Of a DNA stretch of 45,701 bases, positions 29,470-45,487 are shown piece by piece. The notes beneath the pieces are model-generated. The model was not told the origin of the DNA. It did not search any database and was given only the letters and a program-made list of their open reading frames with translations. Made by a program: the position numbers and the translations under genes. The stretch's first letter is position 1; each line of letters starts with the position of its first letter. Origin of the DNA: Candidatus Thorarchaeota archaeon (lineage in GTDB: Archaea > Asgardarchaeota > Thorarchaeia > Thorarchaeales > Thorarchaeaceae); NCBI GenBank assembly GCA_016933575.1, contig JAFGAR010000203.1:1-45701 (forward strand), given 5' to 3'.

Positions 29470-29476
29470 ATTAGCC

Positions 29477-30340: not shown

Positions 30341-30411
30341 TCTTAACGCCTCGGACTATTGGTTAATATTCTTAGGAGTGATGAAAATAAAAGGATGTAA
30401 GACAAAACCAC

Positions 30412-31344
30412 CTAATTCAGAAGTGAATCACTGAGCTGTATGCACATCTCGGAAATTCTTCTTGCACTTGTTCCGAATAGATAGAGAATAGGCTCAATAC
30501 CAATTCCTCCGGGAACATGAATGGCGGGGCAACTTGCGTTCTTAGTTGGCAATTTCTTCATAGCTGTAAGGGAATGAATGATCTTGGACGGATCAATCTC
30601 GGGTTCCTCAGTGGAGACTACATGAAATCCGACACCAGTAGCAGCTTTCATTATTGAAGAATGACCACTGACGCATAGACATGCAGTAGTTTTTGGCCAG
30701 ACATCTCTCACTCTCAGAAGCAATTCAGCTGTGTGTCTTGAAGCGCCGAATTCGGGTCCAATGAGTGCTAGAGCTCGACCACCAACAATCGTAATTCTAC
30801 CAGGAACTCCAGCAACATCTTCAATGGTTCTTGATGTCTTATGACATGCAACAAGATTAGCTCGTACTTGAGGTACAATCCTCTCAAAGGTTATTGAAGA
30901 TTCAATTGCATAAAGTGCATCCTGCATATCACGGATTACTTCTGCTCGCTCAGATAGATTGTTATCGTGACCACCAAGGAGTTCTGAGCATATCTGACAA
31001 TTAGCGTCCTTTAATGATCCAATATTCTTTTGGTGAATCTTGCATATGGTAAATCCTAGTCGTGAATACATGCATGCTGAACAGAGTTCCTTAACGATTT
31101 TATCAGCGGTAATTTCTTGATTCAGTACCATTGAAGTCAATCTGTCGACAAGCTTGTTTATTTCACCTGTCAATTCAGTGTCCGAAGACTTTTGAGCTAG
31201 GTACTTGCTAACAGCTGCTTGTGTAACATTCATGCGGGAAGCTATCTCTATTTGAGAGAGCCCAGCGTTTCTAAGAGACTTTGCTAGTTTTGTTCGAACC
31301 TCAGGAAGGAATTCTCTGTGGACAACTTCACATGGAGGACGCAT
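30412..31344 (-). CDS. thiR: Thiamine-responsive regulator (HTH + ThiN-like domain)
   Basis: MRPPCE + HTH 'LSQIEIASRMNVTQAAVSKYL', a Cys cluster, and a ThiN domain 'VPQVRANL...DVAGVPGRI...PEFGASRH...GGIGIEP'; divergent from thiBPQ. Confidence 0.85.
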   Translation of the reverse strand: MRPPCEVVHREFLPEVRTKLAKSLRNAGLSQIEIASRMNVTQAAVSKYLAQKSSDTELTGEINKLVDRLTSMVLNQEITADKIVKELCSACMYSRLGFTICKIHQKNIGSLKDANCQICSELLGGHDNNLSERAEVIRDMQDALYAIESSITFERIVPQVRANLVACHKTSRTIEDVAGVPGRITIVGGRALALIGPEFGASRHTAELLLRVRDVWPKTTACLCVSGHSSIMKAATGVGFHVVSTEEPEIDPSKIIHSLTAMKKLPTKNASCPAIHVPGGIGIEPILYLFGTSARRISEMCIQLSDSLLN

Positions 31345-31363
31345 TGTTATTCCTCAGTGTAGA

Positions 31364-31392
31364 TTATAACACCATTATATAAAGTGTTATAA
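31364..31392. promoter_or_regulatory. Candidate ThiR operator bracketing the TATA box of the thiR/thiBPQ divergon
   Basis: Perfect inverted repeat TTATAACAC-N11-GTGTTATAA whose spacer contains TTATATAAA. Confidence 0.8.
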
Positions 31393-31430
31393 GAATGCTT
31401 TGATTGTGTGTCAGTCAGGCGGTCATTGGT

Positions 31431-32555
31431 ATGAGTGAATATCCTGTCCGAAGAGACCCAAAGAAGATTCTCGGAGTCATTGCAATTGTCGTCATATTAG
31501 TTGTTGCAACATATGGGATTCTAACTTATTGGAAACCAAGATTTGTAGTCTATACTTACAGCAGTTTCATGGACTGGGGGGATGAAGGAGCAGATGTTGT
31601 TCTTAATCGTGCTTTTGCTCCCTTTGAAGAAATGTATGGGATAGAGATCGATTTTGTAATTCTTGAAGGAGATGCAAATTTCATTGTATCAAAACTGAAT
31701 GCGGAAGCAGCAAATCCAGTAGCAGATGTAATAATTGGTATTGATAACATTCTCATTCTTCAAGAATCTGCACGTAATGTTCTAGAACCATACATCTCAC
31801 CAAATCTAGCGTTGATTAACAAAACCTTGGTGAATGCGCTTGATACAAATCATTATCTCACGCCATTCGACTTTGGTCTTGTAACATTAATCTATTCGAT
31901 GAATACAATCAATACGACTACGAATCCTGAATTAGCAAACTTGACTTTCTCAGACCTTGCTGATCCGGAACTTGCCTCTGCTCTTGTTACTGAAGATCCT
32001 AATCTAAGCAGCCCAGGGCTCTCATTCTTTTTATCGCAGATTGCAATTTATGAAAAGATACTTGACACAGATTGGACTACATGGTGGGATACTGTAGAGG
32101 AGAATATTGATGTTGAAGAGGGATGGACTGAAGCATGGTCAGCTTGGTCTTCAGACCCGTCAAAGCATCTTCTCGTGAGCTATGGAACAGATCCTGCATA
32201 CTCAGCCTATTATTCGGGGACATCTCCTGATACAGCAATTGCTCCATTCTATTACAATAATGAACATTGGGCATGGATGCAGGTTGAGGGCGTCGGTCTT
32301 GTTAAGAATGGACCGAATCCAGAACTTGGAAAGGCTTTCATTGATTATTGCCTAAATCAATCAGTACAACAAGAAGTCGCTCTCAATCAATGGATGTTTC
32401 CAGTCAGGGCTGACTTGCCACTGCCAAGTGTTTTTGATTATGCCATTCATCCAGATGAGATCAGCGTGTTGAACACCTTACTTAATAGCACGGAGATTGC
32501 AACCAATCTTCAGACCTGGCTTCAGCAATACAATTCAGTCATGACACCAGGATGA
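31431..32555 (+). CDS. thiB: Thiamine ABC transporter substrate-binding protein
   Basis: VYTYSSF..WG, ADVIIGIDN, PFDFG, SSPGLSF, GWTEAW, VSYGTDPAY, QVEG and QWMFP. Likely ATG at 31431 (track start 31404). Confidence 0.92.
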   Translation: MSEYPVRRDPKKILGVIAIVVILVVATYGILTYWKPRFVVYTYSSFMDWGDEGADVVLNRAFAPFEEMYGIEIDFVILEGDANFIVSKLNAEAANPVADVIIGIDNILILQESARNVLEPYISPNLALINKTLVNALDTNHYLTPFDFGLVTLIYSMNTINTTTNPELANLTFSDLADPELASALVTEDPNLSSPGLSFFLSQIAIYEKILDTDWTTWWDTVEENIDVEEGWTEAWSAWSSDPSKHLLVSYGTDPAYSAYYSGTSPDTAIAPFYYNNEHWAWMQVEGVGLVKNGPNPELGKAFIDYCLNQSVQQEVALNQWMFPVRADLPLPSVFDYAIHPDEISVLNTLLNSTEIATNLQTWLQQYNSVMTPG

Positions 32556-32567
32556 GAGGAACAATCA

Positions 32568-34208
32568 GTGACGATTCATAACAAGGGAAGATATGTTATA
32601 CTGGCTTTTCCATTCATCCTACTATCAATATTCATACTTTACCCTGTTGTAAGAGTGATTATAGAGGGGCTTCTATTCGGAACCGGTCTTAATTTTCTGG
32701 AATCAATTTCCTATAACTCCAATTATCTCAGTTTTACATTTTTCCAAGCTTTGGCAAGCACTCTATTATCCGTTATAGTAGGTCTTCCAGGTGCAATATT
32801 ACTGGCACGTTTGAAATTCAGAGGAAAATCTCTAGTTAGAGCACTTATCGTTGTACCGTTTGTATTGCCGCCGATTGTTGTTGTCATTGGTTTCATGCAA
32901 ATGTTCGGGTCATACGGTGTTATCGATTCGATTCTCATGAGTATTCTTCAGACTACAGATTCTGTCATGAACCTAGCAACTGATATTCCAGGTATCATTC
33001 TTGCTCACACCTTCTACAACGCGCCCCTAGTGATTCTGCTAGTATCTGCTTCGATGGAGAGAATGAATCCTGAAATAGAGGAGGCTGCGGATATTCTTGG
33101 GGCTGATTCTTTACAACGATTTCGACGAATAACATGGCCTCATATCATGCCCTCACTTGCCGCAGCAGCCATACTAACATTTCTCTTCTGTTTCATGTCA
33201 TTTCCAATTGTTCTAGCGTTTGGACATGGAACCTATAGGACTATCGAAGTTCAAATATGGAATGCCTTTAGATGGTCAGATTATAGTCAGGCCAGTTCTC
33301 TTGCACTTGTACAACTTGCGTTTACGATAACTCTAGCTATTGCATATATGAAAATAGGAAGGGAGAAAGGAGATAGTTCAGGCCCGACAGCATCCATAAA
33401 AACATCTAGCTTGCGAAACTATGGAAACGGTGAGATTGCCCTAATTATTATGTATCTCCTTGCGATGTTAATTCTCGTTGCTGGACCAATCATCTCAATA
33501 GTAAGGGCATCAATTTTTGATCCCGTTTCGCAACAATACACCTTGGATGGATTTCTCTATTTATTTAGCATGGATTCTGGAGGTGGCGTTCGTCCATTAA
33601 TCAACTCCCTCTTCTATGGTGGCGTAGCAACACTACTATCCGTGGTTCTAGGCATTCCTCTTGCCTATGCTCACAGATCAAAAGTACAGGGATTGCCATC
33701 TCTATCATCGATGATGGTGCTATTACCACTTGGCGTGTCTTCAATCACTATTGCATATGGTCTCATGACAGCCATTGCTGTGCCCACGGGTCTTAATATT
33801 AATCCGTGGCCAATCATTGTAATCGCACAGACTATGATTGGCCTTCCCTTTACAACAAGATCCATAGAGATTGCACTCAGGAATATCGATCCAAATTTAA
33901 TCGACCAAGCTGATTCACTTGGGGCCTCACGACTGCAGAGGCTATTTTTTGTTGAACTCCCTCTAATTGTACCAGGTATACTTGTAGGAGCTGTCTTTGC
34001 CTTTGCTATGGCAATAGGCGAAATGTCAGCTACATTGTTTATTGCACTTCCTCAGAACTATACTTTAGCTGTCGCAATCTATGATAATTTAGGAGTAAGG
34101 AAGTTTGTAGAAGCCGGGGCTTCTGCATTAGTCTTGGTAATATTATGCATTCTAGCTTTTCTTACGATGGAGAGAATCTCTGAAGGAAGCACTGGAGGAG
34201 CACTATAA
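32568..34208 (+). CDS. thiP: Thiamine ABC transporter permease (two BPD_transp_1 domains)
   Basis: FTFFQALAST, PFVLP, LAHTFYN and two EAA loops (EEAADILGA; DQADSLGA). Confidence 0.92.
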   Translation: MTIHNKGRYVILAFPFILLSIFILYPVVRVIIEGLLFGTGLNFLESISYNSNYLSFTFFQALASTLLSVIVGLPGAILLARLKFRGKSLVRALIVVPFVLPPIVVVIGFMQMFGSYGVIDSILMSILQTTDSVMNLATDIPGIILAHTFYNAPLVILLVSASMERMNPEIEEAADILGADSLQRFRRITWPHIMPSLAAAAILTFLFCFMSFPIVLAFGHGTYRTIEVQIWNAFRWSDYSQASSLALVQLAFTITLAIAYMKIGREKGDSSGPTASIKTSSLRNYGNGEIALIIMYLLAMLILVAGPIISIVRASIFDPVSQQYTLDGFLYLFSMDSGGGVRPLINSLFYGGVATLLSVVLGIPLAYAHRSKVQGLPSLSSMMVLLPLGVSSITIAYGLMTAIAVPTGLNINPWPIIVIAQTMIGLPFTTRSIEIALRNIDPNLIDQADSLGASRLQRLFFVELPLIVPGILVGAVFAFAMAIGEMSATLFIALPQNYTLAVAIYDNLGVRKFVEAGASALVLVILCILAFLTMERISEGSTGGAL

Positions 34209-35269
34209 TGGCGAATGTGGAATTAAGAGGGCTCGTGAGAGCTTTTCCAGATGGAACACGAATTGGACCAGTGAATCTTGAAGTCCAGGATGGTGAGTTA
34301 ATGACGCTTCTCGGTCCAAGTGGTTCAGGCAAGACAACTACACTCAGAATGATTGCGGGGTTCATTGATGTCGATGATGGCGAACTTCTATTTGATACAT
34401 CTAACGTGATTGATATTCCACCCCGTGAGAGGAATATAGGTATGGTCTTCCAATCAGTTGCATTATTCCCAAACATGACAGTGTACCAAAACATCGCATT
34501 TGGACCTGAAATGGCAGAATGGGAACGTAAAGACACTATAGAAAGAGTTGAGGAACTTGCAGAACTATTAGGTATACGTCACCTTCTCATGAGACGGACC
34601 AGTGAAATTAGCGGAGGAGAGGCCCAACGTGTGGCGGTGGCTCGTGCGCTAGCCAAGAGACCTAATTTACTTCTGTTGGATGAACCATTATCTGCCTTAG
34701 ATCCACAACTTCGTGAACATCTACAAACTGAGATTAGACATATACAGAAGAAATTGGGAATCACTACAATATATGTTACACATAGTCAGGATGAAGCATT
34801 TGCTATCTCAGACCGTGTTGCTATCATTGATGATGGTAGAATTGTACAAGTTGGAACACCAGAGGAACTCTATGATAGACCTGCAAACGAGTTTGTTGCC
34901 AGGTTTCTTGGGAGTGGAAATGTCCTTGAAGGGGTTGTGATGAAAAATGAGGGAGGAAAACAATGTATGGATATCAAAGGGCTAGAGATACCAATTTCTG
35001 GAGAACACATCTTAGGACAAACAATCAAGCTCAGTGTAAAACCAGAGGATATCTCGATATCCACAAAGAACATCCCAACGAATGGTTCTGGAAAGATAAT
35101 CTCAATCATTCCTCAAGTTGGGTCATTCAAGGTAACTCTTGATTTTCATGGAATACCGATTATTGCATTGACATATGATGAAAACCTAGTGAAATTACTT
35201 CGAAAGTATGGAGATAGACTTGTGTCATTCTCATTTGACCCTGAACTAGCTGTCATCCTCAAGGGCTAG
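34208..35269 (+). CDS. thiQ: ABC transporter ATP-binding subunit (thiamine)
   Basis: GPSGSGKT, ISGGEAQR, LLLDEP and VTH motifs; coupled to thiP (TAATG). Confidence 0.9.
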   Translation: MANVELRGLVRAFPDGTRIGPVNLEVQDGELMTLLGPSGSGKTTTLRMIAGFIDVDDGELLFDTSNVIDIPPRERNIGMVFQSVALFPNMTVYQNIAFGPEMAEWERKDTIERVEELAELLGIRHLLMRRTSEISGGEAQRVAVARALAKRPNLLLLDEPLSALDPQLREHLQTEIRHIQKKLGITTIYVTHSQDEAFAISDRVAIIDDGRIVQVGTPEELYDRPANEFVARFLGSGNVLEGVVMKNEGGKQCMDIKGLEIPISGEHILGQTIKLSVKPEDISISTKNIPTNGSGKIISIIPQVGSFKVTLDFHGIPIIALTYDENLVKLLRKYGDRLVSFSFDPELAVILKG

Positions 35270-36310
35270 TTCAGATTCTTCTAATAATTCTGGTTCATTA
35301 TCATCGTCAGTTTCAACTTCAGATATTACGTCAAGGGAAGACGAGATAGTGTCCTCGAGGTGAGGTTCTGATTCGATGATGTCAGCAAGCACTGGGGTCA
35401 TTATGAGATTTCGATCAACCAGTGATATCACACGATCTCGAATATAATCGGAGGATGATAGTATATCCGGCACCTCGTATTTTGCACTGAGGCACTCCAT
35501 CATTGAAGATGTGGCTTTATTCCTGAAATAAATAAAGACTAGTGTAAAATTGAGTACTATGGAGAATAGTGGACCGAGGGGGATGAGAATGATGAATACA
35601 GGTAACCATGGTGCTGACGGACCAACACTTATTGTGAGTTCGAGGAGGAGGAATAGGATGTCGACTCCAGCAAAGAACTCTAGTATATCTTCTAAGTCAT
35701 CACCAACATTGCTTAGGGATCTATCACGTTCATCAAGATGAAAGAGACCGGAGTCTTTCATAAGCCATGGACCAAAATAGAATTCCATCACTGTGAAAGG
35801 GAGTACGATTATACTTGCCAACATGAGAAAAGTGCCGCTGGGAATGATTTCTTCAGCATTGGCTACCATGAGGTCGAATCCAAGAATCGTTAATGAAATT
35901 CCAACGACGAGGATTGACCCATAGAGTGATCGGCGAAGTACAACGCTCAAGCCTTGTTCGGGGGTTTCAGGACTTAGAAAGTACTCGCCCGTATTTCGCT
36001 TGGCAAAATGATGAATTTTCAGAGGCAGACTCACAATTCGAGGCCAACGTGTCATTCCAAGACAAATAAGTATGGCAATCACAATCGAAAGGGCAGAGGC
36101 AAAGAGCATATACAAAGTATAAGGAACTATTTTACTCAAATCGACAGGATAGACTTGAACAAAATTCAGGAGCGATAGAACACCCCAGGTTGAACCAATC
36201 ATAATTAGTGTTGATGCAAACAGTCCTAGCAGGATCTGTTTGTTAGTCAATCTATCGGTTTCTTCGAAGTGCTGAGTAAACAAACGAATTGATTCTGACC
36301 TACTTGCCAT
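35246..36310 (-). CDS. Hypothetical multi-pass membrane protein with acidic C-tail
   Basis: About 6 hydrophobic segments. Likely start MASRSES at 36310 (track start 36349). Its 3' end overlaps thiQ by 24 bp. Confidence 0.75.
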   Translation of the reverse strand: MASRSESIRLFTQHFEETDRLTNKQILLGLFASTLIMIGSTWGVLSLLNFVQVYPVDLSKIVPYTLYMLFASALSIVIAILICLGMTRWPRIVSLPLKIHHFAKRNTGEYFLSPETPEQGLSVVLRRSLYGSILVVGISLTILGFDLMVANAEEIIPSGTFLMLASIIVLPFTVMEFYFGPWLMKDSGLFHLDERDRSLSNVGDDLEDILEFFAGVDILFLLLELTISVGPSAPWLPVFIILIPLGPLFSIVLNFTLVFIYFRNKATSSMMECLSAKYEVPDILSSSDYIRDRVISLVDRNLIMTPVLADIIESEPHLEDTISSSLDVISEVETDDDNEPELLEESELALEDDS

Positions 36311-36546
36311 TGCAACTAACCAAAAAATATGAATGCAGACCTTATTCATAAGGATATTTCACATTGATTCAGGTCTATTAATAGGAAATGACGCTAAATA
36401 GTTCTAAATGTGTTATTGATATCTAGCACAATAACAATCATATAGCACAAACAGCGATTAAGCTGTGTGCTGGCAAAGTATCAAGACATGTGTTTTGATG
36501 CACCGCTTTGCAGTAAACAAGATTAACAGTCGCGTAGTGATTGATT

Positions 36547-37461
36547 ATGGTTATAGGTTACGAGGTTCTGGAAGATGGAACCCTAAATGAAATAGAGCTG
36601 TCAAAGGATGAGTTGAATTCATCACTCGTAGTATGCGTTGTTGATGATGAAACTAAAAGCATCTATCTCTGGAAGGGAAGTCAAGCAGGTGTTAGAGTGA
36701 AATTCATTGGTGCACGAGTCGCCACGAATCTCAGAACAGAGTATGGATTTCATTTCAAAGTTAGGCCTCTTGATGAGGGAGAAGAACCCCCGACTTTCTT
36801 CTCAGCTCTGAATGGAACGACAGCAGCCACACGTGTGATGAAGCCGGGTGATAAAGCACCACCTCCAGCTCCTCCAAAACCGAAAAAAGAAACAGAAATC
36901 ACTGCAACCACTACACCGCCTCCAACACCAAAAATTACAGAACCAGTAACGACAACAGTCACTGAAACGACTTCACCACCACCAAGGCCGCAAACAACAA
37001 CACAACCAAGAACAGCTCCACCTTCAACAGTAGCAACCAGACCCCCTGCAGCTCAAGGAGAGATTGCAGAGATGCTAAAAGAACTTGAAACTGTAGATCC
37101 ACCAGAAGGGTATCAGAGAGAGCTTGTAATTGTCTATAATGATCTTTATACAATTGCAGAACACAAGACCGCTGTCTTTGGTCAAGAAAAAATTGAGAGA
37201 AGAATTGAGAAAGTCAAAGATCCTCCAGAGGGTACTTTCATGGCGGAAGGATTCATTCCAAGAGTTATCGTCAAAGACGGAAGAGTGCTTGGAATTGAAT
37301 TGCTGAAAGGTACTCCGGATGCTATTCTAAGCCCCATTAAGGCTGAGATGAAGGAACGACTGAGTGACCTGATAACCTTCTTCAAATCCGAAACCGAAGA
37401 AGGCGATAAAGCAAGTGCTTCAGGGAAGACCAAGAAAGGCAAGAAATTGGTTGCCAAATAA
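36547..37461 (+). CDS. Gelsolin-like domain protein with Pro/Thr-rich linker and C-terminal domain of unknown function
   Basis: 'ELNSSLVVCVVDDETKSIYLWKGSQA...KFIGARVA...LDEGEEPPTFF' matches the gelsolin-repeat pattern (L.S..V.hhD....IYhW.G......EG.EP..F). Likely ATG at 36547. Confidence 0.8.
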   Translation: MVIGYEVLEDGTLNEIELSKDELNSSLVVCVVDDETKSIYLWKGSQAGVRVKFIGARVATNLRTEYGFHFKVRPLDEGEEPPTFFSALNGTTAATRVMKPGDKAPPPAPPKPKKETEITATTTPPPTPKITEPVTTTVTETTSPPPRPQTTTQPRTAPPSTVATRPPAAQGEIAEMLKELETVDPPEGYQRELVIVYNDLYTIAEHKTAVFGQEKIERRIEKVKDPPEGTFMAEGFIPRVIVKDGRVLGIELLKGTPDAILSPIKAEMKERLSDLITFFKSETEEGDKASASGKTKKGKKLVAK

Positions 37462-37502
37462 TTTCACAAAATAGAATATGAAATAACAAGAGGGAACAAG
37501 TT

Positions 37503-37892
37503 ATGTCATCACATATTGATCCTGCTAAAGAAAAAGAGCTCGTGGAGCTACTAATGGGACTTACTAACTATGCAGACCTAGATGCCATTGCGGTAGTGAG
37601 CAAGCAAGGTGTAAAACTTGCATATTTTGCAACTGAGGATTCAGACGCAGATCCAGATCTTATGGCAGCAGTAAGTGCAGCTCTTCTGATGACTGGAGAT
37701 ATGGCTGCAACAAAGCTGGGCCTTAATGAACTCTATGAAGTAACTGTACGTGGCAAAGATGGCTTCGTCGTTCTCTCGCATGCTGGAGAATTCCTACTTA
37801 TGGGCTCAGCACGAGACCTTACCTCAATGGGCCTTGCCGTGACACAGATGAGGAAGTATGCACGAGAGGTAGGAGAACTTCTAGGACAATAG
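37503..37892 (+). CDS. Roadblock/LC7 domain protein
   Basis: 'AIAVVSKQG', 'DLMAAVSAALL..G..A...LG..EL.EVTVRGKDGFVVL' and a terminal helix. Confidence 0.9.
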   Translation: MSSHIDPAKEKELVELLMGLTNYADLDAIAVVSKQGVKLAYFATEDSDADPDLMAAVSAALLMTGDMAATKLGLNELYEVTVRGKDGFVVLSHAGEFLLMGSARDLTSMGLAVTQMRKYAREVGELLGQ

Positions 37893-38013
37893 TAATACCA
37901 ATGGTTAGATATCTTGGCTAAGTAGTATTTTGGTAATTGATTAGGAACTACAAAGATACATAATACAGGTCTTCATTAATAAAATCATTAGATGTAGAAT
38001 GGTTGATGATTAG

Positions 38014-38391
38014 GTGAAGGGTATACTTGTGCTGGATGATGCAGGATTAACAATTGCCGCGGTTGGTTTAGAGGAGGTCAGTCTTAACACCGAATTATTC
38101 AGTGCCTTCATTTCTGCTATCCAAACCTATGCATTAAGATCAATAGGTACTGAGATGAAATCATTGACCTATAGCCAAGTCATTCTCATGATTGGACAAG
38201 CTGGAGACAAGATTGTAGTTACTCTCCACTCATTAGACGACCCCGATTCAGATTGGAATCATCGAGCAACCCTACGGATTATGGAAGGCGATGGATTTAG
38301 ACTTGATGACCAGTATCTTGGAATCTTGAGAGAACTCCTTACAGAGGGACGATTGTCGCCAGATGAAGCCAAATTAGTAACAACATCATGA
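38014..38391 (+). CDS. Small longin/roadblock-like (profilin-like fold) protein
   Basis: 'ILVLDDAGLTIA...NTELFSAFISAIQTYA....G.EMKSL' resembles the N-terminal pattern of Asgard longin-type domains. Confidence 0.6.
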   Translation: MKGILVLDDAGLTIAAVGLEEVSLNTELFSAFISAIQTYALRSIGTEMKSLTYSQVILMIGQAGDKIVVTLHSLDDPDSDWNHRATLRIMEGDGFRLDDQYLGILRELLTEGRLSPDEAKLVTTS

Positions 38392-38407: not shown

Positions 38408-39493
38408 TCATTTCGGACCAAGCTGCTTGAAAGTGACTATTTCGTGGAGAGTACTACCCGTTTCCTCATCGGTTCGCCCTTCATGTATTACCTTTACTTT
38501 GAAATCAGAATTTAGTCGGAAATAGCCTGGTTTCATTCGAAGTACATTCTTTGCAAGAAATGCCAATACAGGATTGAACATATCAAGCATATTCACTTCT
38601 TCATAAACCCTAGCTACATCTAGTTTGACTTCTAATTCTCCAGGGACTTTGATTGAGATTGTTCTTGGGAAACTATGTCCCGCAGCTTCACTGAATTCAA
38701 AATCTTCCTGAGAAAATTCATACTCGCCCGAGCTGAGAAAAACTTCACTTCCTTTCGCAGCCATCAGCACTTTCACAGCGTGTCTGTCAACCTTATCATT
38801 ACATTGAATGAATGCATAGGCAATCGTGTAGTTATCAGAATACACTCGACCCCACATCCAATACTCAATGATACTTTGGAAGGAAAAATTCAGCCAGTTG
38901 TGATCGTGATATCCAACACCTTTCACAGATATTGTTTTGTTTCCATCTCTGATTGATCCTTCAATTGAAGCTCTTGAAAAAGGAACAACCCATGCAAAGT
39001 AGCCCAAGTCAGCAAAATGTGAGTAACCAGTTCCTGGCATCCACCCCTTCACAGTTGCCTTGTAAGTCAGGTCGAACATCAAATCTTCATCCTCAAGAAA
39101 GATTTCGTAAACTGGAAGATCATCATCAGTGAAGGTTGCTTTCATAGTATTGTTACCAATCTTGACATCAGGAATCTCTTTAGATGCATAGAACTGCGAT
39201 TTCTTGTACTTGATAACTTTTTGAGTCTTAGTGCCATCAGGTCTCAAGAGTGTGAGTTCAACAGCTATCTTACCTTGGTCCAAACCAGGATTGGGATAGG
39301 CAACATAGAAGAACGCCACCAAAGTGTATCCTCCTTCCAGATGCGCGTCAAAATACCACCATTCGAACTGGTTCTTCGCCCCTACATCGATATGCAGTGC
39401 ATCGTCTTCGGGTTTCATCGGAATGATTGTTCCGTCACGTCGTCCGGGACCGGTCCAACCTTCTTTTACGTTAGGGTTAACATAGTCAGTCAT
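38408..39493 (-). CDS. CrtC/AttH/tocopherol-cyclase-like (lipocalin-like double barrel) protein
   Basis: 'DDALH.......FEWWYFDA', 'GYHDHNW' and 'W.WGR'; ATGA overlap with the upstream oxidoreductase. Confidence 0.75.
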   Translation of the reverse strand: MTDYVNPNVKEGWTGPGRRDGTIIPMKPEDDALHIDVGAKNQFEWWYFDAHLEGGYTLVAFFYVAYPNPGLDQGKIAVELTLLRPDGTKTQKVIKYKKSQFYASKEIPDVKIGNNTMKATFTDDDLPVYEIFLEDEDLMFDLTYKATVKGWMPGTGYSHFADLGYFAWVVPFSRASIEGSIRDGNKTISVKGVGYHDHNWLNFSFQSIIEYWMWGRVYSDNYTIAYAFIQCNDKVDRHAVKVLMAAKGSEVFLSSGEYEFSQEDFEFSEAAGHSFPRTISIKVPGELEVKLDVARVYEEVNMLDMFNPVLAFLAKNVLRMKPGYFRLNSDFKVKVIHEGRTDEETGSTLHEIVTFKQLGPK

Positions 39494-41073
39494 TTCTTTC
39501 TCTCTCTTCCTTTTACATAGTGACTGGGATCAGAGACCCCGTTCGGATCAAATGCCGCCTTAATCTTCCGAATCCAATCAGCATAGTTCATTGTCCTTTC
39601 AGCATAGAAATTATGAACATCATCACCTACGATGAAGAAGGGCATTCCTAGAGCTTCGTCGAGGTCCATCTGATTGCACTCATCTTGGTAGGCAGCATAA
39701 CCAAGACAAGAATCTACGGAGGTAGGATCGTATACCGTAGGAGTTTCCATATGTGCCATATGACCGGATTCATAGCTTGTAATCCAGACTCCGAGACCTC
39801 GGTCATCACCAATCACACCTTTGTCGATGTATTTCTGTTTGACAGGCTGATTCAATTGTGCTAATCGAACAGCCATAGCTATCGTATCCATACCGCCATG
39901 GGTACTCTGGAAGCAGTTTGAGAAACGGAATGCATGACCTCCAAGCATATTTCGAACGGTCTCTCCGTAGTGCATTGGTTTTGGAATTGTCACGCCTTCT
40001 TCAATGAGATCATTTCCTCCATATTTCTCCATGATTAATCGAACTAGCTTTGTTCTGAACTCGAACTCTCGCTTAGTATGTGCGGCCACTAGCATTACAA
40101 TGTAGTTCCGAGTCTTGGCAAGTAATCCAGCAAATATCGATTCGATTGCCTCCTGCTTTGTATTTGTGAACAAGGCAGCTAGTCCCTCGGGTGCAGAGGT
40201 TGTTGCAACCATAGTTACTTCGCGGTCACTTAGCTCATACATAGCATTCTGGTACTCTTCCCACTCTTCGAAATTCAGTACATACATTTTCCAGAATGGT
40301 GGGATATCCCAATCGTATTCAGGAATGGTACCACTCGTCTTCCATTTCCATTCCTTTGGAGCTGGCCATGAGAACAACCGAATGGCAGCCTTAGTGAAAA
40401 CTCCCAGACCACCATATGCACCGAGCCATCCTCTCATGATTCCACGAAGACTTATACCAGGCCCATCACCTGTGAACCATTTGCCACTATAATCGTATGA
40501 TCCAAGTCGAATGATTTCGCCATCAGGAAGAACCCATTCGACGCCAAGGACATTCCTTCCACTGAATCCAGTGTAAGGTGAAGTGAAGCCGGGTCCAACG
40601 AAGGAAGTATGACTTGCAAGGGGGGATGTCTGTGGTCCAGCTCCTTGAGCATGATGCATCAGACCAAATTCAAATAGTTCAGACTGAAGTTGTGCATTTG
40701 TCACATATGGTTCGATCACTGCATACATATTCTGCTCATCAATCTCAAGAATTCGATTCATTCGCCGCAGATCAATCTGGATAGCGCGAGGATTACTTAG
40801 ACCAGCCCATGGTCCCATCCCAGTGCAGAACGCCTTGTAACCGACATTATGTTCATTGCAGAGACGAACAATAGCCTGAACTTCCTCGGTAGATTTTGGA
40901 AGAACAACAGCAAGTGGTCTAACACCAAATCGTTGTGGCTCTTCTCCGCGTTGAGCACTCTCAATCTCGTTGCACCACTGGAAAGCGTACGAATCCATGA
41001 CTGCGAGGTCTTGGGAGATATTACGTTCTCCGACAATCTTCTCAAAGGCTGAGTAGACATTCTTTTCCAGCAT
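39490..41073 (-). CDS. FAD-binding oxidoreductase, VAO/PCMH (GlcD-like) family
   Basis: 'AVVLPKSTEEVQAIVRLCN', 'IDLRRMNRILEIDE', 'GVEWVLPDGEI', 'GGLGVFTK' and 'KIKAAFDPNG'. Confidence 0.9.
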   Translation of the reverse strand: MLEKNVYSAFEKIVGERNISQDLAVMDSYAFQWCNEIESAQRGEEPQRFGVRPLAVVLPKSTEEVQAIVRLCNEHNVGYKAFCTGMGPWAGLSNPRAIQIDLRRMNRILEIDEQNMYAVIEPYVTNAQLQSELFEFGLMHHAQGAGPQTSPLASHTSFVGPGFTSPYTGFSGRNVLGVEWVLPDGEIIRLGSYDYSGKWFTGDGPGISLRGIMRGWLGAYGGLGVFTKAAIRLFSWPAPKEWKWKTSGTIPEYDWDIPPFWKMYVLNFEEWEEYQNAMYELSDREVTMVATTSAPEGLAALFTNTKQEAIESIFAGLLAKTRNYIVMLVAAHTKREFEFRTKLVRLIMEKYGGNDLIEEGVTIPKPMHYGETVRNMLGGHAFRFSNCFQSTHGGMDTIAMAVRLAQLNQPVKQKYIDKGVIGDDRGLGVWITSYESGHMAHMETPTVYDPTSVDSCLGYAAYQDECNQMDLDEALGMPFFIVGDDVHNFYAERTMNYADWIRKIKAAFDPNGVSDPSHYVKGRERKK

Positions 41074-42344
41074 TACTTGCCACCTCCAATGCTACGAAGA
41101 ACAAGTTCCGTGAGATCGAAATATTCCATATCCGATTTCCGAGATTCAATTCCATCTTTGAAATTCGTTCCACAGAAAGGACAAGCTGAAACAAGAGTCG
41201 AAGCTCCAGTGGACTCAGCTTCCTCTAGTCGCTCGTTTGCCGCCCAGAGTGCAAAATCGGGGTACGCAGACTTACATCCTCCACCTGCGCCGCAACAATA
41301 GGAGTACTCACGGATTCGCTGCATCTCAACCAATTCAAGACCAGGAATCTGTTTCAGAACATTCCGAGGTGCATCATAAACTCCTCCAGCTCCTCTTCGT
41401 TCAGGCTTGGGTGGGTCATAGATGTACACCTGTGATAGGACCTCAATCTTCTCACCCTCCCATGGAATGTAGGGTTCAGCCATTCTACCAAGGTGACAAG
41501 GATCGTGATAGGTCACTTTCATTGGAACTTTTTCAGTAAGTTTGATCTTACCATCTTGTAGAAATTCTTCAATTATCTGAGAGGTATGAACAACCTCGAT
41601 GTCATGCTCAACGAAGCGAGGATATTCAACTTTGAGCATATTGTAACATCCACTGCATGAAGTGATAATCTTCTTAATTCCTGCCTCTTTGAACTGCTCG
41701 ATATTGCTCTTCATTATCTCAATTGCTCTCTTCTCATCACCAACACGATAGACAGGACTACCACAGCACATCTCATCTGAACCCATCAAACGGAAGCCTT
41801 CACCAGCTGAGTTCAGAATCTTAGCAGTAGCTACTGCAATCTCTTCACGTCTATAAGATGCAGTACAGCCTACGAAATAGAGTGTGGATGAAGATTCATT
41901 TGTTGTGATACCATCTGTCAACCATGCAGGTCTCTTTTCAGGGTCCTCACCATAGGGATTCTTGTCACGTTCAACAAGCTCTATGTACTTCTTGTGCTTG
42001 GGCATTGGTCCTGTCCCAGATTCAACAGCCGCCACACGTAATTCATGAATTGCTTCATTGGGTTCTAGTTCATAGACCCATTTACAAGAAACCTCACATC
42101 CGCCACAGTTTGTACAACTGTAGATTACATCAAGCATCTCCGGTGTAAGTTCGACACGCCCCTTGTGATAAGCACTGGCTACGATCATTCGACCACCGCC
42201 TGAATACGCATGGAAATTGAAGTAATCAATTGAGGGGCAAATGCTCGACCACCGTTTGCTTTGAATCACAAGTTGTGGGATGAATTTGCATTTGGAGCAC
42301 CGTACACAACTGTCCATCATGTCCTCGAATTCACCGAGAGTCAT
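41073..42344 (-). CDS. HdrD/GlcF-type Fe-S oxidoreductase (2x4Fe-4S + two CCG domains)
   Basis: CVRCSKC...CP and CTNCGGCEVSC; YFVGC/CCGSP/CSGC; YHDPCH/CCGAGGG/ACPFC. Confidence 0.92.
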   Translation of the reverse strand: MTLGEFEDMMDSCVRCSKCKFIPQLVIQSKRWSSICPSIDYFNFHAYSGGGRMIVASAYHKGRVELTPEMLDVIYSCTNCGGCEVSCKWVYELEPNEAIHELRVAAVESGTGPMPKHKKYIELVERDKNPYGEDPEKRPAWLTDGITTNESSSTLYFVGCTASYRREEIAVATAKILNSAGEGFRLMGSDEMCCGSPVYRVGDEKRAIEIMKSNIEQFKEAGIKKIITSCSGCYNMLKVEYPRFVEHDIEVVHTSQIIEEFLQDGKIKLTEKVPMKVTYHDPCHLGRMAEPYIPWEGEKIEVLSQVYIYDPPKPERRGAGGVYDAPRNVLKQIPGLELVEMQRIREYSYCCGAGGGCKSAYPDFALWAANERLEEAESTGASTLVSACPFCGTNFKDGIESRKSDMEYFDLTELVLRSIGGGK

Positions 42345-43792
42345 TATGGCACCTCCTTGAAACAGAGTGTCCCCGGATTCAGAATATTGTTGGGGTCAAA
42401 GATTGATTTGATACGTTTCATAGCCTCAACTGTCATAGGGCCAGACTTTTCAAAGACCAAGTCGGTAATTGCACCATAGGGTCTGCTGAAATATGCACCT
42501 TCGTCTAGTAGTTTCTTCTGCCCTTTCGCGAGAAGCGTAATAGCAGATTCTGTGTCTTCATCAAGACTGTAGTATAAATCAAATCCAACATGAGTATTGG
42601 TTCCTTGATTCGTTGGTTGGACATATGCTCCAATTTGACTTCGGGGAAAATCGCATTCATCTGCAACATCACAAAACATGTCATAGAACTCTTGTGTTCT
42701 ATCAAACGTTGTTGTGAACATAACCTCCAAGCAATTACCAGCTATGTCAACTTTCCAATAGGGAACTCGACTTGCCCGATTGAGGATTCCTTCAATATCA
42801 GAAGAGCGGATTGCCTCGAAGTTCTCTTGGAGGTCAACATTGGTTTCAGATCCAATGTCCCGGATATCACTCACTCTATACTCAAGTTCCTCATCTGCAA
42901 TCATTCCGTGGCCCGATACACCAATTATGATGGTCCAAGGAGAATAGATTTTGGTTGTTGAGAATATCCCTTTGAGACTGACAGAGTTCAACATGAAGTG
43001 TTCGTCAGCAAGCCTACGTCTGAAAAGCGCATAATTGAACTCTTGGAACGAATTAAGATCTTCACCCTGAGCTAGGAGAAACAACTGTTTGTCAGGTAGT
43101 TTCTCACACTTCATTGAAATCCAACTGACAATTCCGATTGTGCCCTGAGCACCTTGTACTAATCTGAATGGATCGAACTGAGAAGGTCCCTGAGGATTCT
43201 TCTGTGCTTGACCAGACTCCCATTGTTCCTCAAGTGTACCAGGACCTGCAGCAGCACCAGTCCTAAGAACATCACCAGTTCCAAATACGGTCTCTGTGCA
43301 GAGAAGAGGGTCGGTTGTATCCCAGTGATATCTTGGTGTCGTAATTGGCTCTCTATCAAGACAACTTGCCAAGACAGACTTGGATGCTTTAGGTAGAAGT
43401 GGCATTAGTGGACGAAGACCTTCCTTCTTTAACTCGGAGATCAAATGGTCGTAAGTCACACCAGGTTCAATCATTGCAACTTTGTTCTTCGAATCAATTC
43501 GTAAAATATTCCGCATCTTGCTCAAATCGACAATTATTGCATTCTTTACCTTAGGGAGAGATGAGCCTCGCAGTTTTGGTCCTGCAGAACTAGTAGGAAC
43601 TAGTGGAATAGAATTCTTGTTAGCCCATTTCACGAGCTTTACTATTTCTTCAGTAGAAGTAGGCCAAACCACAAGTGAAGGTGGTTCCTTACCTGAGTAT
43701 ACTGAGAGTGTCTCATCTGAATTGGATACCTTTTCTTTCCCAAGTATTTGCTCTATCTCTGCTATCAGAGTTTCGTTCATGACTGTCCACAC
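42344..43792 (-). CDS. FAD-binding oxidoreductase, VAO/PCMH (GlcD-like) family
   Basis: 'VVWPTSTEEI', 'VDLSKMRNILRID', 'IEPGVT', 'GAQGTIGIVS' and 'IKSIFDPNNILNPG'. The true start may be ATG 43780. Confidence 0.9.
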   Translation of the reverse strand: MWTVMNETLIAEIEQILGKEKVSNSDETLSVYSGKEPPSLVVWPTSTEEIVKLVKWANKNSIPLVPTSSAGPKLRGSSLPKVKNAIIVDLSKMRNILRIDSKNKVAMIEPGVTYDHLISELKKEGLRPLMPLLPKASKSVLASCLDREPITTPRYHWDTTDPLLCTETVFGTGDVLRTGAAAGPGTLEEQWESGQAQKNPQGPSQFDPFRLVQGAQGTIGIVSWISMKCEKLPDKQLFLLAQGEDLNSFQEFNYALFRRRLADEHFMLNSVSLKGIFSTTKIYSPWTIIIGVSGHGMIADEELEYRVSDIRDIGSETNVDLQENFEAIRSSDIEGILNRASRVPYWKVDIAGNCLEVMFTTTFDRTQEFYDMFCDVADECDFPRSQIGAYVQPTNQGTNTHVGFDLYYSLDEDTESAITLLAKGQKKLLDEGAYFSRPYGAITDLVFEKSGPMTVEAMKRIKSIFDPNNILNPGTLCFKEVP

Positions 43793-43811
43793 ATCCTTGT
43801 TTTTGTCGAGG

Positions 43812-44087
43812 TTAGCCCTGCTCGTATACTATTCCAGTACCACCGGCAGGGAATCGGAATTCAATTGCATCACTCTCACATACCTGATAACAAGCTCCGC
43901 ACTCTAGGCAATGTGATACATAATCGTCTACGATATAGATGGTACTTTCACGTTTCTTCCAGAGATTCATAACACAGATGAGAAGACAGCGGTCGCATAG
44001 AGTGCACTTCTCATTGTTGATTTTGATGAAATCACCTGTTCCTGGAATTCTCGTCACGAGTTTTTTATGGTCTATCTTCATTTTCAT
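43812..44087 (-). CDS. FixX-like ferredoxin
   Basis: CTLCDRCLLIC and CLECGACYQVC plus the FixX-type tail 'FRFPAGGTGIVYEQG'. Confidence 0.85.
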   Translation of the reverse strand: MKMKIDHKKLVTRIPGTGDFIKINNEKCTLCDRCLLICVMNLWKKRESTIYIVDDYVSHCLECGACYQVCESDAIEFRFPAGGTGIVYEQG

Positions 44088-45487
44088 TCCTCCTCAGGCG
44101 CATCCATGAAAGCTTTAGTTAATGCTTCTTCAATCTCTGGCATCTCTGCAAGTAGTTTCTCGGGATCTGTAAGAAGTGCCATCTTGTCTTCCCCTAGAAT
44201 CGTTGTTAGCAGAGGAATTACTTCTTTCATGATGAAGGGTACAGCTTGCGGCAGATGCATCTTGAGCCTTCGAGCAATCTGCCGGATTCGAACAGCATGC
44301 GGTTCAGACCAGTCAATTATTCCTCCAATTATCTCCATGAACATCGGAATAAACCAAGACATTGTCTTGTGTGGGCTGAATGGTAGTGCTCTCCATATGC
44401 TCGCAAGCTCTGGTCCAGCTGTGAATTCTTCACCAACTGAGGTTGCCATCCACTTCTTATCGTACAATGATAGGAATTCATTGGATGTGTCATCTTCTGC
44501 AAGGGCTTCAGCAGCAGCCGCAATCGCAGCTCTAGCTGTAATCATTGCTGGATAGATTCCTTCAGCTTCTAACGGGCATGGAAATCCTCCTGCATCACCT
44601 ACTAATATCACATTGTCAGTATGTGTATTGTAGGGTTTTCCTTGCCACGGAAGAAGATGAGCTTGAAACTCTCTTGGTTTTGCATCAAGGATTCTAACTA
44701 ACCTCTTGAAATACTTCAAACTTGTGACTCTATTTAGATAATACACGGGGTTCTTATCCCACCAGGTCATCCAGTTTCCAAGACCGATATGGAATCCTCC
44801 GTTGAAGAATACTTGATATGCCGCAGGGAAGACTGCAGACCACCATACAGCTAGTGCCTCATCTCCCATAATATCATCAATCTTTGAAGGTGAACACTCA
44901 AAGTCATATTGTGGCACAATGGTTACTTCTTCCTGCTTCCACCTTTTTCTAAGCCCAGATTGTTGCGCGACCATTGAAACAGCACCATCTGCTCCAATCA
45001 CAAATCCTCGATATTTCTCACCCTTTTCATCAATGACACCAACTACCTTACCATCCTCTTTCAAGAGTCCCGTAACTAGAGTTGAAGTCTTGAGTTCAGC
45101 TCCAGCATCGACAGCATATCGAGCTAGCCAGGGATCGAAATCACTTCGGTAACAATTCAGAGTTATCCAGCTCTTTGCTGGTTCATACGTAACGGAAGCA
45201 GTAGGAGTGGTCATTATGTAACCAGTTACCTCTCCCTCTTCATCGACAAAATAGTTACGAGCAGCACGACCTTCCCGTATTGAAGGGCACACTTCAGGCC
45301 CAATCTCCTTCATAATATCGAAGTCGCGCCACATACGAGGACCAAGACCACAACCAGACGAGTTCTTCTCACCCGGCTTTCTTCCACGCTCAAAGAAAAT
45401 GGTCTTGAGACCCTTTTCTGCAGCTTCTTTTGCAGCAGTTGAACCTCCGGGACCAGCTCCCACGATAACAATATCATATTCGTTCAA
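44084..45487 (-). CDS. FixC / geranylgeranyl-reductase-family flavoprotein
   Basis: VGAGPGG, ERGRKPGEKN, R..FD.WL, GADG and LVGDAGG..PLEAEGI..AM; TTG start preceded by SD AAGGTGA. Confidence 0.88.
   Translation of the reverse strand: MNEYDIVIVGAGPGGSTAAKEAAEKGLKTIFFERGRKPGEKNSSGCGLGPRMWRDFDIMKEIGPEVCPSIREGRAARNYFVDEEGEVTGYIMTTPTASVTYEPAKSWITLNCYRSDFDPWLARYAVDAGAELKTSTLVTGLLKEDGKVVGVIDEKGEKYRGFVIGADGAVSMVAQQSGLRKRWKQEEVTIVPQYDFECSPSKIDDIMGDEALAVWWSAVFPAAYQVFFNGGFHIGLGNWMTWWDKNPVYYLNRVTSLKYFKRLVRILDAKPREFQAHLLPWQGKPYNTHTDNVILVGDAGGFPCPLEAEGIYPAMITARAAIAAAAEALAEDDTSNEFLSLYDKKWMATSVGEEFTAGPELASIWRALPFSPHKTMSWFIPMFMEIIGGIIDWSEPHAVRIRQIARRLKMHLPQAVPFIMKEVIPLLTTILGEDKMALLTDPEKLLAEMPEIEEALTKAFMDAPEEE

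Follow-up and report, generated by a model that had tools for sequence, protein, structure and literature searches.

A conserved gene cluster of Asgard archaea joins a GlcDEF-architecture flavoprotein triad to FixC/FixX-like and CrtC-fold partners

Two reports from 2026 describe triads of flavoproteins and an iron-sulfur protein in anaerobes that degrade benzene: the 'conspicuous flavoprotein' BzS1_12970/80/90 of Musat et al. (PMC13416013) and the 'Magic' proteins 24-26 of ORM2a of Toth et al. (PMC13101534). In these papers, proteins with the triad layout are the three most abundant ones in BzS1, ORM2a and Pelotomaculum BPL, all of them anaerobes that degrade benzene; they are GlcDEF-like in AlphaFold 3 predictions while being at most 23% identical to GlcDEF, and their substrate is given as unknown (PMC13416013, PMC13101534). 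Musat et al. further describe Etf as also abundant in benzene-grown anaerobes and propose its connection to the triad in BzS1, place CoA-ligase, CoA-transferase, MaoC and Bam genes at the flanks of the benzene-linked triads, and ascribe probably other functions to distant homologues of 23-42% identity (PMC13416013). Related electron-transfer proteins are known from the FixCX/EtfCX part of Thermotoga maritima EtfABCX (7KOE; PMC10734219) and from archaeal gene pairs of a GGR and a ferredoxin, which saturate archaeal lipids (PMC10821996). Here we analyzed a 45.7-kb contig (JAFGAR010000203.1, positions 1 to 45,701, hereafter called the window), which is a whole contig of a Thorarchaeota metagenome-assembled genome (MAG) that is 85% complete. 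It carries a six-gene operon in which a triad of this layout stands together with FixC/FixX-like proteins and a CrtC-fold protein, and we found that this combination recurs widely among Asgard archaea and beyond.

The six open reading frames (ORFs) occupy 38408-45487 on the minus strand. In the order of their translation, they encode a FixC/EtfC-like flavoprotein of the GGR superfamily (44084-45487, 467 residues; assigned by profiles, a tree and a predicted structure), a FixX-like 2x[4Fe-4S] ferredoxin (43812-44087, 91 residues), a VAO/PCMH-superfamily flavoprotein with a divergent cap in the 'GlcD' position, hereafter called FAD1 (42344-43792, 482 residues), an HdrD/GlcF-like iron-sulfur subunit with CCG domains, the CCG subunit (41073-42344, 423 residues), a second VAO/PCMH-superfamily flavoprotein in the 'GlcE' position, FAD2 (39490-41073, 527 residues), and a two-barrel protein of the CrtC/AttH fold (38408-39493, 361 residues). 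The domain labels that a preliminary description had given to these genes agree with the Pfam and NCBIfam calls, and the tight junctions that it listed are all present in the sequence. The FixC-like and FixX-like genes overlap by ATGA at 44084-44087, as do FAD2 and the CrtC-like gene at 39490-39493; FAD1 and the CCG gene, and the CCG gene and FAD2, overlap by TAATG at 42344 and 41073, respectively. The only gap, between the ferredoxin gene and FAD1, is 19 nucleotides with a GTG start or 31 with an ATG start. GGAGG-type Shine-Dalgarno motifs sit within the ends of the preceding genes. Transmembrane segments and signal peptides are predicted for none of the six proteins, and the system is therefore cytoplasmic and soluble.

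The further gene suspected upstream is there as well: an ORF truncated at the contig end (45497-45700, minus strand) encodes the C-terminal part of a PadR-family regulator. The fragment is 55-70% identical to a full gene of 183-202 codons that adjoins the FixC-like gene in three loci of the same genus (L012, L015 and L016; L012:11706-12314 matches Pfam PadR with E 3.9e-14), and a PadR gene is present in 15 of the 23 Thorarchaeia loci. The downstream flank of the operon is a gelsolin/roadblock/longin gene set. Other species of the genus retain the seven-gene order with protein identities of 61-86%. Since the order is kept within the genus, and since the genes are again neighbours in other classes of Asgard archaea as well as in Bacteria, the operon is more than a chance arrangement. 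Upstream of the PadR gene in one of the loci of this genus, across a CitMHS transporter gene, we also noticed genes for a phytoene-desaturase-like amine-oxidase flavoprotein, a 204-residue protein and a GFO/IDH/MocA oxidoreductase (L012:14459-17693).

The wider occurrence was assessed in 66 triad loci from 12 GTDB families, annotated by clustering and profile searches, and by counting genes in 400 Asgard genomes. The preliminary description had tied the CrtC-like and FixC-like genes to the triad, and the three do keep company elsewhere: of the 66 loci, 40 have the FixC-like/FixX-like pair no more than four genes away from the triad (with the FixX-like gene alongside the FixC-like gene in 39 of the 40), 36 have a CrtC-like gene at such a distance and 31 an SCP2-like gene. 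The SCP2-like genes were identified by Pfam in the Thorarchaeia type and by a structure search in the Lokiarchaeia type, which showed the SCP2 fold (TM 0.62-0.71); hhalign found no match between the 138-residue Lokiarchaeia family and the Thorarchaeia SCP2 family, the alignments being shallow. FAD2 orthologues were found in 146 of the 400 genomes, belonging to many families. Triad and FixC-like gene occurred together in 114 genomes, the FixC-like gene alone in 7, the triad without it in 32 and neither in 247, so that 114 of the 121 FixC-like carriers also have the triad; these counts are descriptive, the genomes being related and the MAGs incomplete. The layout is colinear in Thorarchaeia, PadR-FixC-FixX-FAD1-CCG-FAD2 followed by CrtC or SCP2. 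It is divergent in a Lokiarchaeia-type family (f9), where FixC-FixX read one way and FAD1-CCG-FAD2-SCP2-CrtC the other, and in 9 of these loci a receiver-domain protein is encoded between FAD1 and the CCG subunit (e.g. L051:12049-12924; its C-terminal half of about 170 residues is uncharacterised). Adjacency that outlasts such rearrangement argues for a function of the genes together. The cluster is carried by 90 of 135 genomes of f9 and by 17 of 27 genomes of the Thorarchaeota genus. Between Thorarchaeia and Lokiarchaeia, the FixC-like protein is 66% and the ferredoxin 63% identical, and the triad proteins 38-50%. The regulators met in this cluster type are PadR, TetR and the receiver protein, and an MFS transporter gene is adjacent in Lokiarchaeia; these ligand-type regulators and the transporter suggest induction by a small molecule.

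In a scan that took a single genome for each prokaryotic species, more than 550 relatives were found, and the triad family proved widespread in anaerobic Bacteria and Archaea, including Myxococcota and Actinomycetota. One subfamily, with 56-77% identity, spans Dehalococcoidia, Chloroflexia, 'deltaproteobacteria', Myxococcales, one Promethearchaeota MAG, Nitrososphaerales, Conexivisphaerales, Methanomassiliicoccales and Bathyarchaeia, and has the layouts CCG-FAD1-FAD2-CrtC-like or CrtC-like-CCG-FAD1-FAD2, in one case after a TetR gene. The other, mostly from Dehalococcoidia, reads FAD1-CCG-FAD2-FixC-like-FixX-like, with a form FAD1-(EtfBA)-CCG-FAD2-FixC-FixX. Identities of 56-77% across domains indicate an accessory module that is exchanged horizontally. 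A bin named 'Candidatus Deferrimicrobium' (L019/L156; GCA_035531115.1, DATKTP010000051.1) carries a Helarchaeota-type FAD1-CCG-FAD2-FAD2' cluster; its contig has an Arf/Ras/RagA-type GTPase gene and the layout of Helarchaeota contigs, and it is probably a misbinned Asgard contig.

FAD1, the CCG subunit and FAD2 have the architecture of GlcDEF of E. coli and of related D-lactate dehydrogenases with HdrD-like partners, likewise composed of two FAD_binding_4 subunits and one subunit with Fer4_8 and two CCG domains. FAD1 matched FAD_binding_4 with E 1.4e-16 and FAD-oxidase_C only at profile positions 219-247 of 248; FAD2 matched FAD_binding_4 with E 8.9e-25 and no cap domain. The CCG subunit has Fer4_8 and two CCG domains (E 3.9e-37), with two CxxCxxC...C and two CCG motifs intact, and its PDB matches include 9ojn and HdrB. 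The gene order differs, D-E-F in GlcDEF and D-F-E here, and the Thorarchaeota triad is soluble and has no evident quinone pool in several carriers. The curated models for the enzymes themselves were all missed widely, by about 4-8 times in bit score for the GlcD, GlcE, GlcF, Dld and LdhH equivalogs: the two scores against GlcD were 78 bits, for FAD1, and 72.7 bits (cut-off 567.9), those against GlcE and LdhH were 24.5 (284) and 123.9 (800), and the CCG subunit scored 49.3 against GlcF (333), its best NCBIfam model being TfrB with 202 bits (385). GlcD-like enzymes have an EHGxG-type motif ahead of the C-terminal FDP motif, and the corresponding position reads AYFSRPYG in FAD1 and IVGDDVH in FAD2. 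We therefore rejected an ordinary glycolate or lactate dehydrogenase, the alternative that the preliminary description had held against its own proposal, because the equivalog models were missed and the cap domain was barely recognised in FAD1 and not recognised in FAD2.

The layout of the triad is the one described for the 'Magic' and BzS1 proteins, namely a FAD protein in which an oxidase remnant lies at the C terminus, an iron-sulfur protein with CCG domains and a FAD protein with the N-terminal domain only, when compared by the published descriptions and not by sequence. In this sense, the Thorarchaeota triad fits the description of the distant homologues of BzS1_12970-90. The surroundings differ from those given in these papers. 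No CoA-ligase, CoA-transferase, MaoC or Bam gene was found at the flanks of the operon in the window or recurring near the 66 Asgard loci, and the Asgard clusters carry instead FixC/FixX-like, SCP2-like and CrtC-like genes, which the available text of the benzene papers does not mention. An Etf link was proposed there for BzS1, and in the cluster type studied here it is found in bacterial relatives. BzS1 and ORM2a are benzene degraders, whereas the present organism is a sediment archaeon with no benzene link shown.

Both flavoprotein profiles scored highest against 4-alkylphenol oxidoreductases (PCMH, eugenol oxidase and 4-ethylphenol oxidase), with D-lactate dehydrogenase, alkyl-DHAP synthase and glycolate oxidase ranked below. 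For FAD1, the best match was PCMH 1wve (E 8e-32), followed by the D-lactate dehydrogenase 8jdc (1e-26). Of the phenolate-binding residues of PCMH, however, FAD1 retains the Arg alone (the invariant R437), both Tyr positions being changed, and in a profile alignment of FAD2 with 7pbg all three 4-phenol-binding residues of the VAO/PCMH enzymes are absent. The C-terminal 168 residues of FAD2, used as a profile against the PDB, gave only a weak match, again to 7pbg (E 0.023). Because the phenolate-binding residues are mostly absent, FAD1 and FAD2 are not canonical phenol oxidases, and a canonical 4-alkylphenol oxidase was dropped as a candidate. In-frame FAD1-FAD2 fusions of about 1070-1140 residues occur in four genomes, three Chloroflexota MAGs and one Promethearchaeota MAG (L093:6444-9692, L096:6492-9707, L101:6273-9689 and L106:1-2307), and these natural fusions support a FAD1-FAD2 heterodimer. 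Some FAD2 orthologues are interrupted: two from one Lokiarchaeia genus (G299:C37:8578-10140 and G274:C36:954-2516) have two in-frame TAG codons each, and several others carry one TAA, which could be sequencing errors, recoding or pseudogenes.

The FixC-like flavoprotein scored 133.9-135 bits against TIGR02032, below the cut-off of 158.8, and only 72.9 and 58.6 against the curated FixC models (cut-offs 610 and 466). Its best PDB sequence match was 7koe_C, the FixC protein of the T. maritima complex (E 1.9e-18), followed by TaGGR 3oz2 (E 2.4e-16). The predicted structure (pLDDT 85) gave the same order: 7koe_C came top of 1000 chains with Z 42.0, covering 415 of 438 residues at a root-mean-square deviation of 2.7, and the Thermoplasma GGR 3oz2 and the Sulfolobus GGR (SaGGR) reached Z 39.3 and 34.9. 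The ferredoxin has two complete CxxCxxCxxxC motifs (C28-C38 and C60-C70) and Fer4 Pfam matches, and its residues 25-90 align with residues 30-91 of the 92-residue FixX chain 7koe_D (E 5e-6), while its score against the FixX model is 20.8 at a cut-off of 166. Judged from these sequence and model matches, the label 'FixC/GGR-like + FixX' given in the preliminary description is apt. The likeness to FixCX/EtfCX, whose reductase is the closest in the PDB by both sequence and structure and which also has a FixX-sized 2x[4Fe-4S] partner (here encoded by an overlapping gene), has its limits: identity is only about 20%, no EtfAB genes stand beside any Asgard copy, and the synteny suggests the VAO-type/CCG dehydrogenase as the electron partner, rather than NADH-Etf by itself.

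The Asgard reductases also differ from FixCX in having a Cys, Cys46, that aligns with the catalytic Cys47 of SaGGR. This residue is present in 38 of the 54 members of the triad-linked clade and is a Phe in Dehalococcoidia. The archaeal GGR with a cognate ferredoxin, as known from Methanosarcina acetivorans (PMC10821996), belongs to a common superfamily with the operon copy, with GxGxxG, LxGD, Cys46 and a neighbouring ferredoxin gene as common features; the operon copy, however, lies below the family cut-off, forms part of a separate clade and keeps the PxxYxWxFP motif region only in part, as AVWWSAVFP, this region being variable across the clade. In a maximum-likelihood tree, the triad-linked FixC-like sequences (54 rows, SH-aLRT 99) from Thorarchaeia, Lokiarchaeia, another Asgard family, Dehalococcoidia and Syntrophaceae form one clade, and the 9 other GGR paralogs from the present Thorarchaeota genome that the tree contained fall outside it. 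The genome holds 12 GGR-family paralogs in all, an unusually large set (contigs C38, C57, C51, C166, C163, C156, C150, C80, C116 and C28), of which 8 are over the TIGR02032 cut-off and the operon copy is under it.

The CrtC-like protein matched the N-terminal lipocalin domain PF07143 with 27.3 bits (cut-off 22.5; E 6.5e-6), and its predicted structure (pLDDT 91) resembles the decalin-forming fungal Diels-Alderases CghA/Fsa2 (Z 28), AttH 2ich (Z 25), kievitone hydratase 7a0q (Z 23.6) and the 25-phosphosteroid lyase 9fzn of anaerobic cholesterol degradation (Z 21). It has the two-barrel fold of the family of CrtC, kievitone hydratase, 25-phosphosteroid lyase and AttH (Z 21-25) and a weak Pfam CrtC match in common with them; it differs in its identity of 12-19%, in being cytoplasmic and in standing always beside a flavoprotein/Fe-S dehydrogenase. 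Neither crtI, crtD nor crtF was found by Pfam among the ten flanking genes (27292-38391) or recurring in the Asgard loci, and no steroid-degradation genes neighbour the CrtC-like gene. The invariant motifs EWWYFD, GxGYHDHNW, WxWGR, PGYFR and HE supply Trp, Tyr, His and acidic residues as would be expected, from sequence, for carbocation chemistry at a prenyl C=C bond. Terminal prenyl units are the site of action of both kievitone hydratase and the 25-phosphosteroid lyase; in tocopherol cyclase, a prenyl C=C bond is protonated. The CrtC-like protein may act as a hydratase, lyase or cyclase on prenyl C=C bonds, or may be a subunit that binds lipids.

In two Lokiarchaeia loci (L058:11068-12051 and L065), the CrtC-like gene is replaced by one for a protein of the tocopherol-cyclase family PF14249 (E 1.6e-24). 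This family has no match in the CrtC-like protein of the window, while the two families have the motifs EWWY/EGWY and GxGYxxxxW in common and were aligned by hhalign with E 3.9e-4 and 36% probability. In some bacterial clusters the slot after FAD2 is taken by a URO-D family gene (Pfam E 9.5e-26; uroporphyrinogen decarboxylase/MtaA-type fold; L099:9726-10847, L103:9913-11034 and L113:9643-10860). Between the window and bacterial or other archaeal loci (L084, L088, L097 and L022), identity is 57-58% for the CrtC-like protein but only 31-36% for FAD1, the CCG subunit and FAD2, which suggests strong constraint on the former or a separate transfer of its gene. No fusion of a CrtC-like protein to FAD, SCP2 or FixC proteins was found; the only fusions, in distant relatives, were to membrane acyltransferase and aromatic-acid-exporter domains, besides one tandem duplication. 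A complex prediction of FAD2 with the CrtC-like protein scored 0.00 in both runs, for which controls were not run, and is evidence neither way.

From the gene identities, folds, motifs, conserved linkage and lack of membrane anchors described above, we propose, with a probability of roughly 40%, that the cluster encodes one soluble, inducible electron-transfer system that runs from the dehydrogenase through FixX to FixC and acts on a hydrophobic, probably prenylated compound; how the complex assembles, which way the electrons run and what class of substrate is used are the parts that this proposal adds. FAD1, the CCG subunit and FAD2 would form a heterotrimeric dehydrogenase of the 'Magic'/BzS1_12970-90 family with the GlcDEF architecture, and a hydrophobic substrate would be dehydrogenated at one or both flavins. 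The electrons would exit through the [4Fe-4S]/CCG clusters to the FixX-like ferredoxin and pass on to the FixC/EtfC-like flavoprotein, which may reduce a lipophilic acceptor. The group reduced could be of the quinone head-group type or a prenyl C=C bond, in the same molecule or in a second lipid; in bacterial relatives, EtfAB would join this chain. The CrtC/AttH-fold protein would bind the hydrophobic substrate and most likely carry out proton-initiated chemistry at a trisubstituted prenyl double bond, that is, hydration, elimination or ring closure, and in relatives its role may be shared with, or taken by, the SCP2-like carrier or the tocopherol-cyclase-family protein. PadR (TetR or the receiver protein in relatives, with the MFS transporter in Lokiarchaeia) would make the system inducible.

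The preliminary description had guessed at a prenyl, lipid or aromatic substrate, and a hydrophobic one fits the folds as well as the SCP2 and tocopherol-cyclase neighbours. We likewise infer a hydrophobic, prenyl-type substrate from the relatives of the CrtC-like fold, the tocopherol-cyclase swap and the SCP2 neighbours. The published relatives of the triad, too, abound in anaerobes that grow on benzene, a compound both hydrophobic and unactivated. The substrate would most likely be an exogenous compound with an isoprenoid tail; free isoprenoids, prenylated quinones and prenylated phenols would be examples. An exogenous substrate is favoured over the cell's own membrane lipids because the distribution is patchy and cross-domain. 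A more far-reaching version, offered with less confidence, is a hitherto unrecognised, horizontally mobile enzyme system for the oxygen-independent functionalisation of unactivated hydrophobic molecules. In this version the two-flavin/CCG dehydrogenase would abstract a hydride from an isoprenoid-tailed lipid, quinone or aromatic at an allylic or other unactivated position, the CrtC-fold partner would add or remove water or close a ring, and FixX and FixC would recycle the electrons onto the lipid itself or a lipophilic acceptor.

Several observations weigh against the proposed electron-transfer system. The cluster type is known from its genes alone, and even the benzene-linked triad is without a known substrate. 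The counts from the 400 genomes are descriptive, as said above. Many triads, in Helarchaeota and others, lack the FixCX or CrtC-like genes, so that these would be accessories and not obligatory subunits. The AttH fold is common to Diels-Alderases that do not hydrate and to AttH, whose function is unknown, and catalysis by the CrtC-like protein is putative on this structural evidence. FixC-type proteins normally need EtfAB and a quinone, yet no Etf gene was found in the window or, across the 66 Asgard loci, at a distance of up to about 9 kb from the triad. The preliminary description had guessed that EtfAB would lie upstream; PadR stands there instead, and the guess holds only for bacterial relatives: among 80 loci from Bacteria and other archaea, 17 have EtfA and/or EtfB within the cluster or next to it. 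Genes for EtfAB are present elsewhere in the genomes of Asgard carriers, in the Thorarchaeota MAG only as EtfB and EtfA on a separate 1-kb contig fragment (G000:C42:1-1009); in one carrier that is 92% complete (G202), no Etf was found. In five carrier genomes tested, MqnA/D of the futalosine pathway were not found in any and MenA was over the cut-off in only one, so a quinone acceptor would need an exogenous or other source. With no adjacent Etf and no Mqn or MenA found in most carriers tested, an ordinary FixABCX system feeding menaquinone was set aside for the Asgard copies.

Other readings of the cluster account for part of these data. PadR regulators are classic sensors of phenolic acids, the best PDB relatives of FAD1 and FAD2 are PCMH, eugenol oxidase and 4-ethylphenol oxidase, kievitone hydratase and tocopherol cyclase work on prenylated phenols, homologues occur in the hydrocarbon-associated Helarchaeota, Methanolliviera and Syntrophaceae, and order and domain layout match those described for BzS1_12970/80/90 and ORM2a 24-26. 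All this would suit the catabolism or activation of non-isoprenoid aromatics, such as benzene, alkylbenzenes or lignin-derived 4-alkyl- or alkenyl-phenols, parallel to BzS1, ORM2a and BPL. Here the FixC-like protein and the ferredoxin would be the electron sink, and hydration of an alkenyl side chain would fall to the CrtC-like protein. We consider this unlikely, given that, of the three phenolate-binding residues, FAD2 has none and FAD1 only the Arg, that the CoA-ligase, CoA-transferase, MaoC and Bam genes are absent near the Asgard clusters, that the SCP2 and prenyl-type fold relatives indicate longer lipids, and that Musat et al. give homologues as distant as 23-42% identity other functions. 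A biosynthetic role is less probable still: the cluster might remodel the cell's own isoprenoid membrane lipids, or make a chromanol- or quinone-like lipid, by saturation, hydroxylation or ring closure. The GGR-superfamily reductase with its Cys aligned to SaGGR Cys47 in Asgard members would suit this, as would the lipid-saturating GGR-plus-ferredoxin pairs (PMC10821996), the biosynthetic roles of CrtC-type and tocopherol-cyclase-type enzymes in their classic settings and the commonness of the cluster in f9 (90/135 genomes). The cluster is patchy even within a genus (17/27), however, and modules 56-77% identical occur in Dehalococcoidia, Myxococcales, Nitrososphaerales, Methanomassiliicoccales and Bathyarchaeia, whose membrane lipids are fundamentally different; the PadR, TetR and receiver regulators and the MFS transporter suggest an external ligand, and saturation could be served by the 8 GGR paralogs over the cut-off, the operon copy being under it and its model nearer to FixC. 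Isoprenoid ether-lipid remodelling, an example given in the preliminary description, is disfavoured by the patchy, cross-domain distribution together with the ligand-type regulators.

It is about as improbable that the cluster is an energy module, that is, an Etf/FixCX-type, possibly bifurcating, dehydrogenase for an ordinary soluble substrate; the part of the CrtC-like and SCP2 proteins would then be limited to supplying or holding a lipophilic electron carrier. The EtfA/EtfB genes in or beside 17 of the 80 bacterial and other archaeal loci, the EtfAB genes elsewhere in Asgard carriers, the likeness of the reductase and ferredoxin to the FixC and FixX of bifurcating EtfABCX (PMC10734219), and the VAO-type LctD, which partners EtfAB in lactate confurcation (7qh2_C is among the PDB matches), all lean this way; on the other hand, every curated 2-hydroxy-acid dehydrogenase model fails and the cap domains are divergent, Etf is not adjacent in any of the 66 Asgard loci and none was found in G202, a menaquinone pathway was looked for in 5 carriers and not found in 3 of them, and a CrtC-like protein more conserved than the triad across lineages would be unexpected for a passive holder. 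Finally, the cluster might consist of two or three unrelated units that became neighbours by chance: a dehydrogenase of the lactate/glycolate type, a lipid GGR plus ferredoxin, and a lipocalin. Each unit is found alone in some genomes too. The translational coupling of the genes, the adjacency through three rearranged layouts and two domains, and the dedicated FixC-like clade, with 114 of 121 FixC-like genomes also having the triad, disfavour this strongly, and we regard it as very improbable.

In an Asgard genome that is closed (G036), a dTDP-glucose-dehydratase-type epimerase gene was seen to be interrupted by a LAGLIDADG intein (L014:15300-17432).

Our literature search found no paper on the combination of the triad with FixC/FixX, SCP2 and a CrtC- or tocopherol-cyclase-fold protein. 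To this extent the view of the preliminary description that no pathway with this combination had been described stands, while the core triad family itself was described in 2026 in benzene degraders (PMC13101534, PMC13416013). Each part is thus of a known kind, and it is the conserved combination that is new to the literature searched. The family is tied by these papers to the open question of how strict anaerobes attack benzene (PMC13416013, PMC13101534). It is far more widespread than that, being present in about a third of the sampled Asgard genomes and in several bacterial and archaeal lineages. The FixC/FixX, SCP2 and prenyl-hydratase/tocopherol-cyclase-fold partners narrow its chemistry to hydrophobic, probably isoprenoid-bearing substrates and suggest where the electrons go, which makes the function of the family testable with recombinant proteins. 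For the biology of Asgard archaea, the cluster points to a hitherto unrecognised conversion of lipids or terpenoids by organisms that are commonly depicted as fermenters of peptides and sugars. If the more far-reaching version of a mobile, oxygen-independent functionalisation system were true, many Asgard archaea (146 of the 400 genomes) would feed on or transform detrital prenyl lipids, and the accessory genes would be the first mechanistic handle on the benzene-activating 'Magic' flavoproteins.

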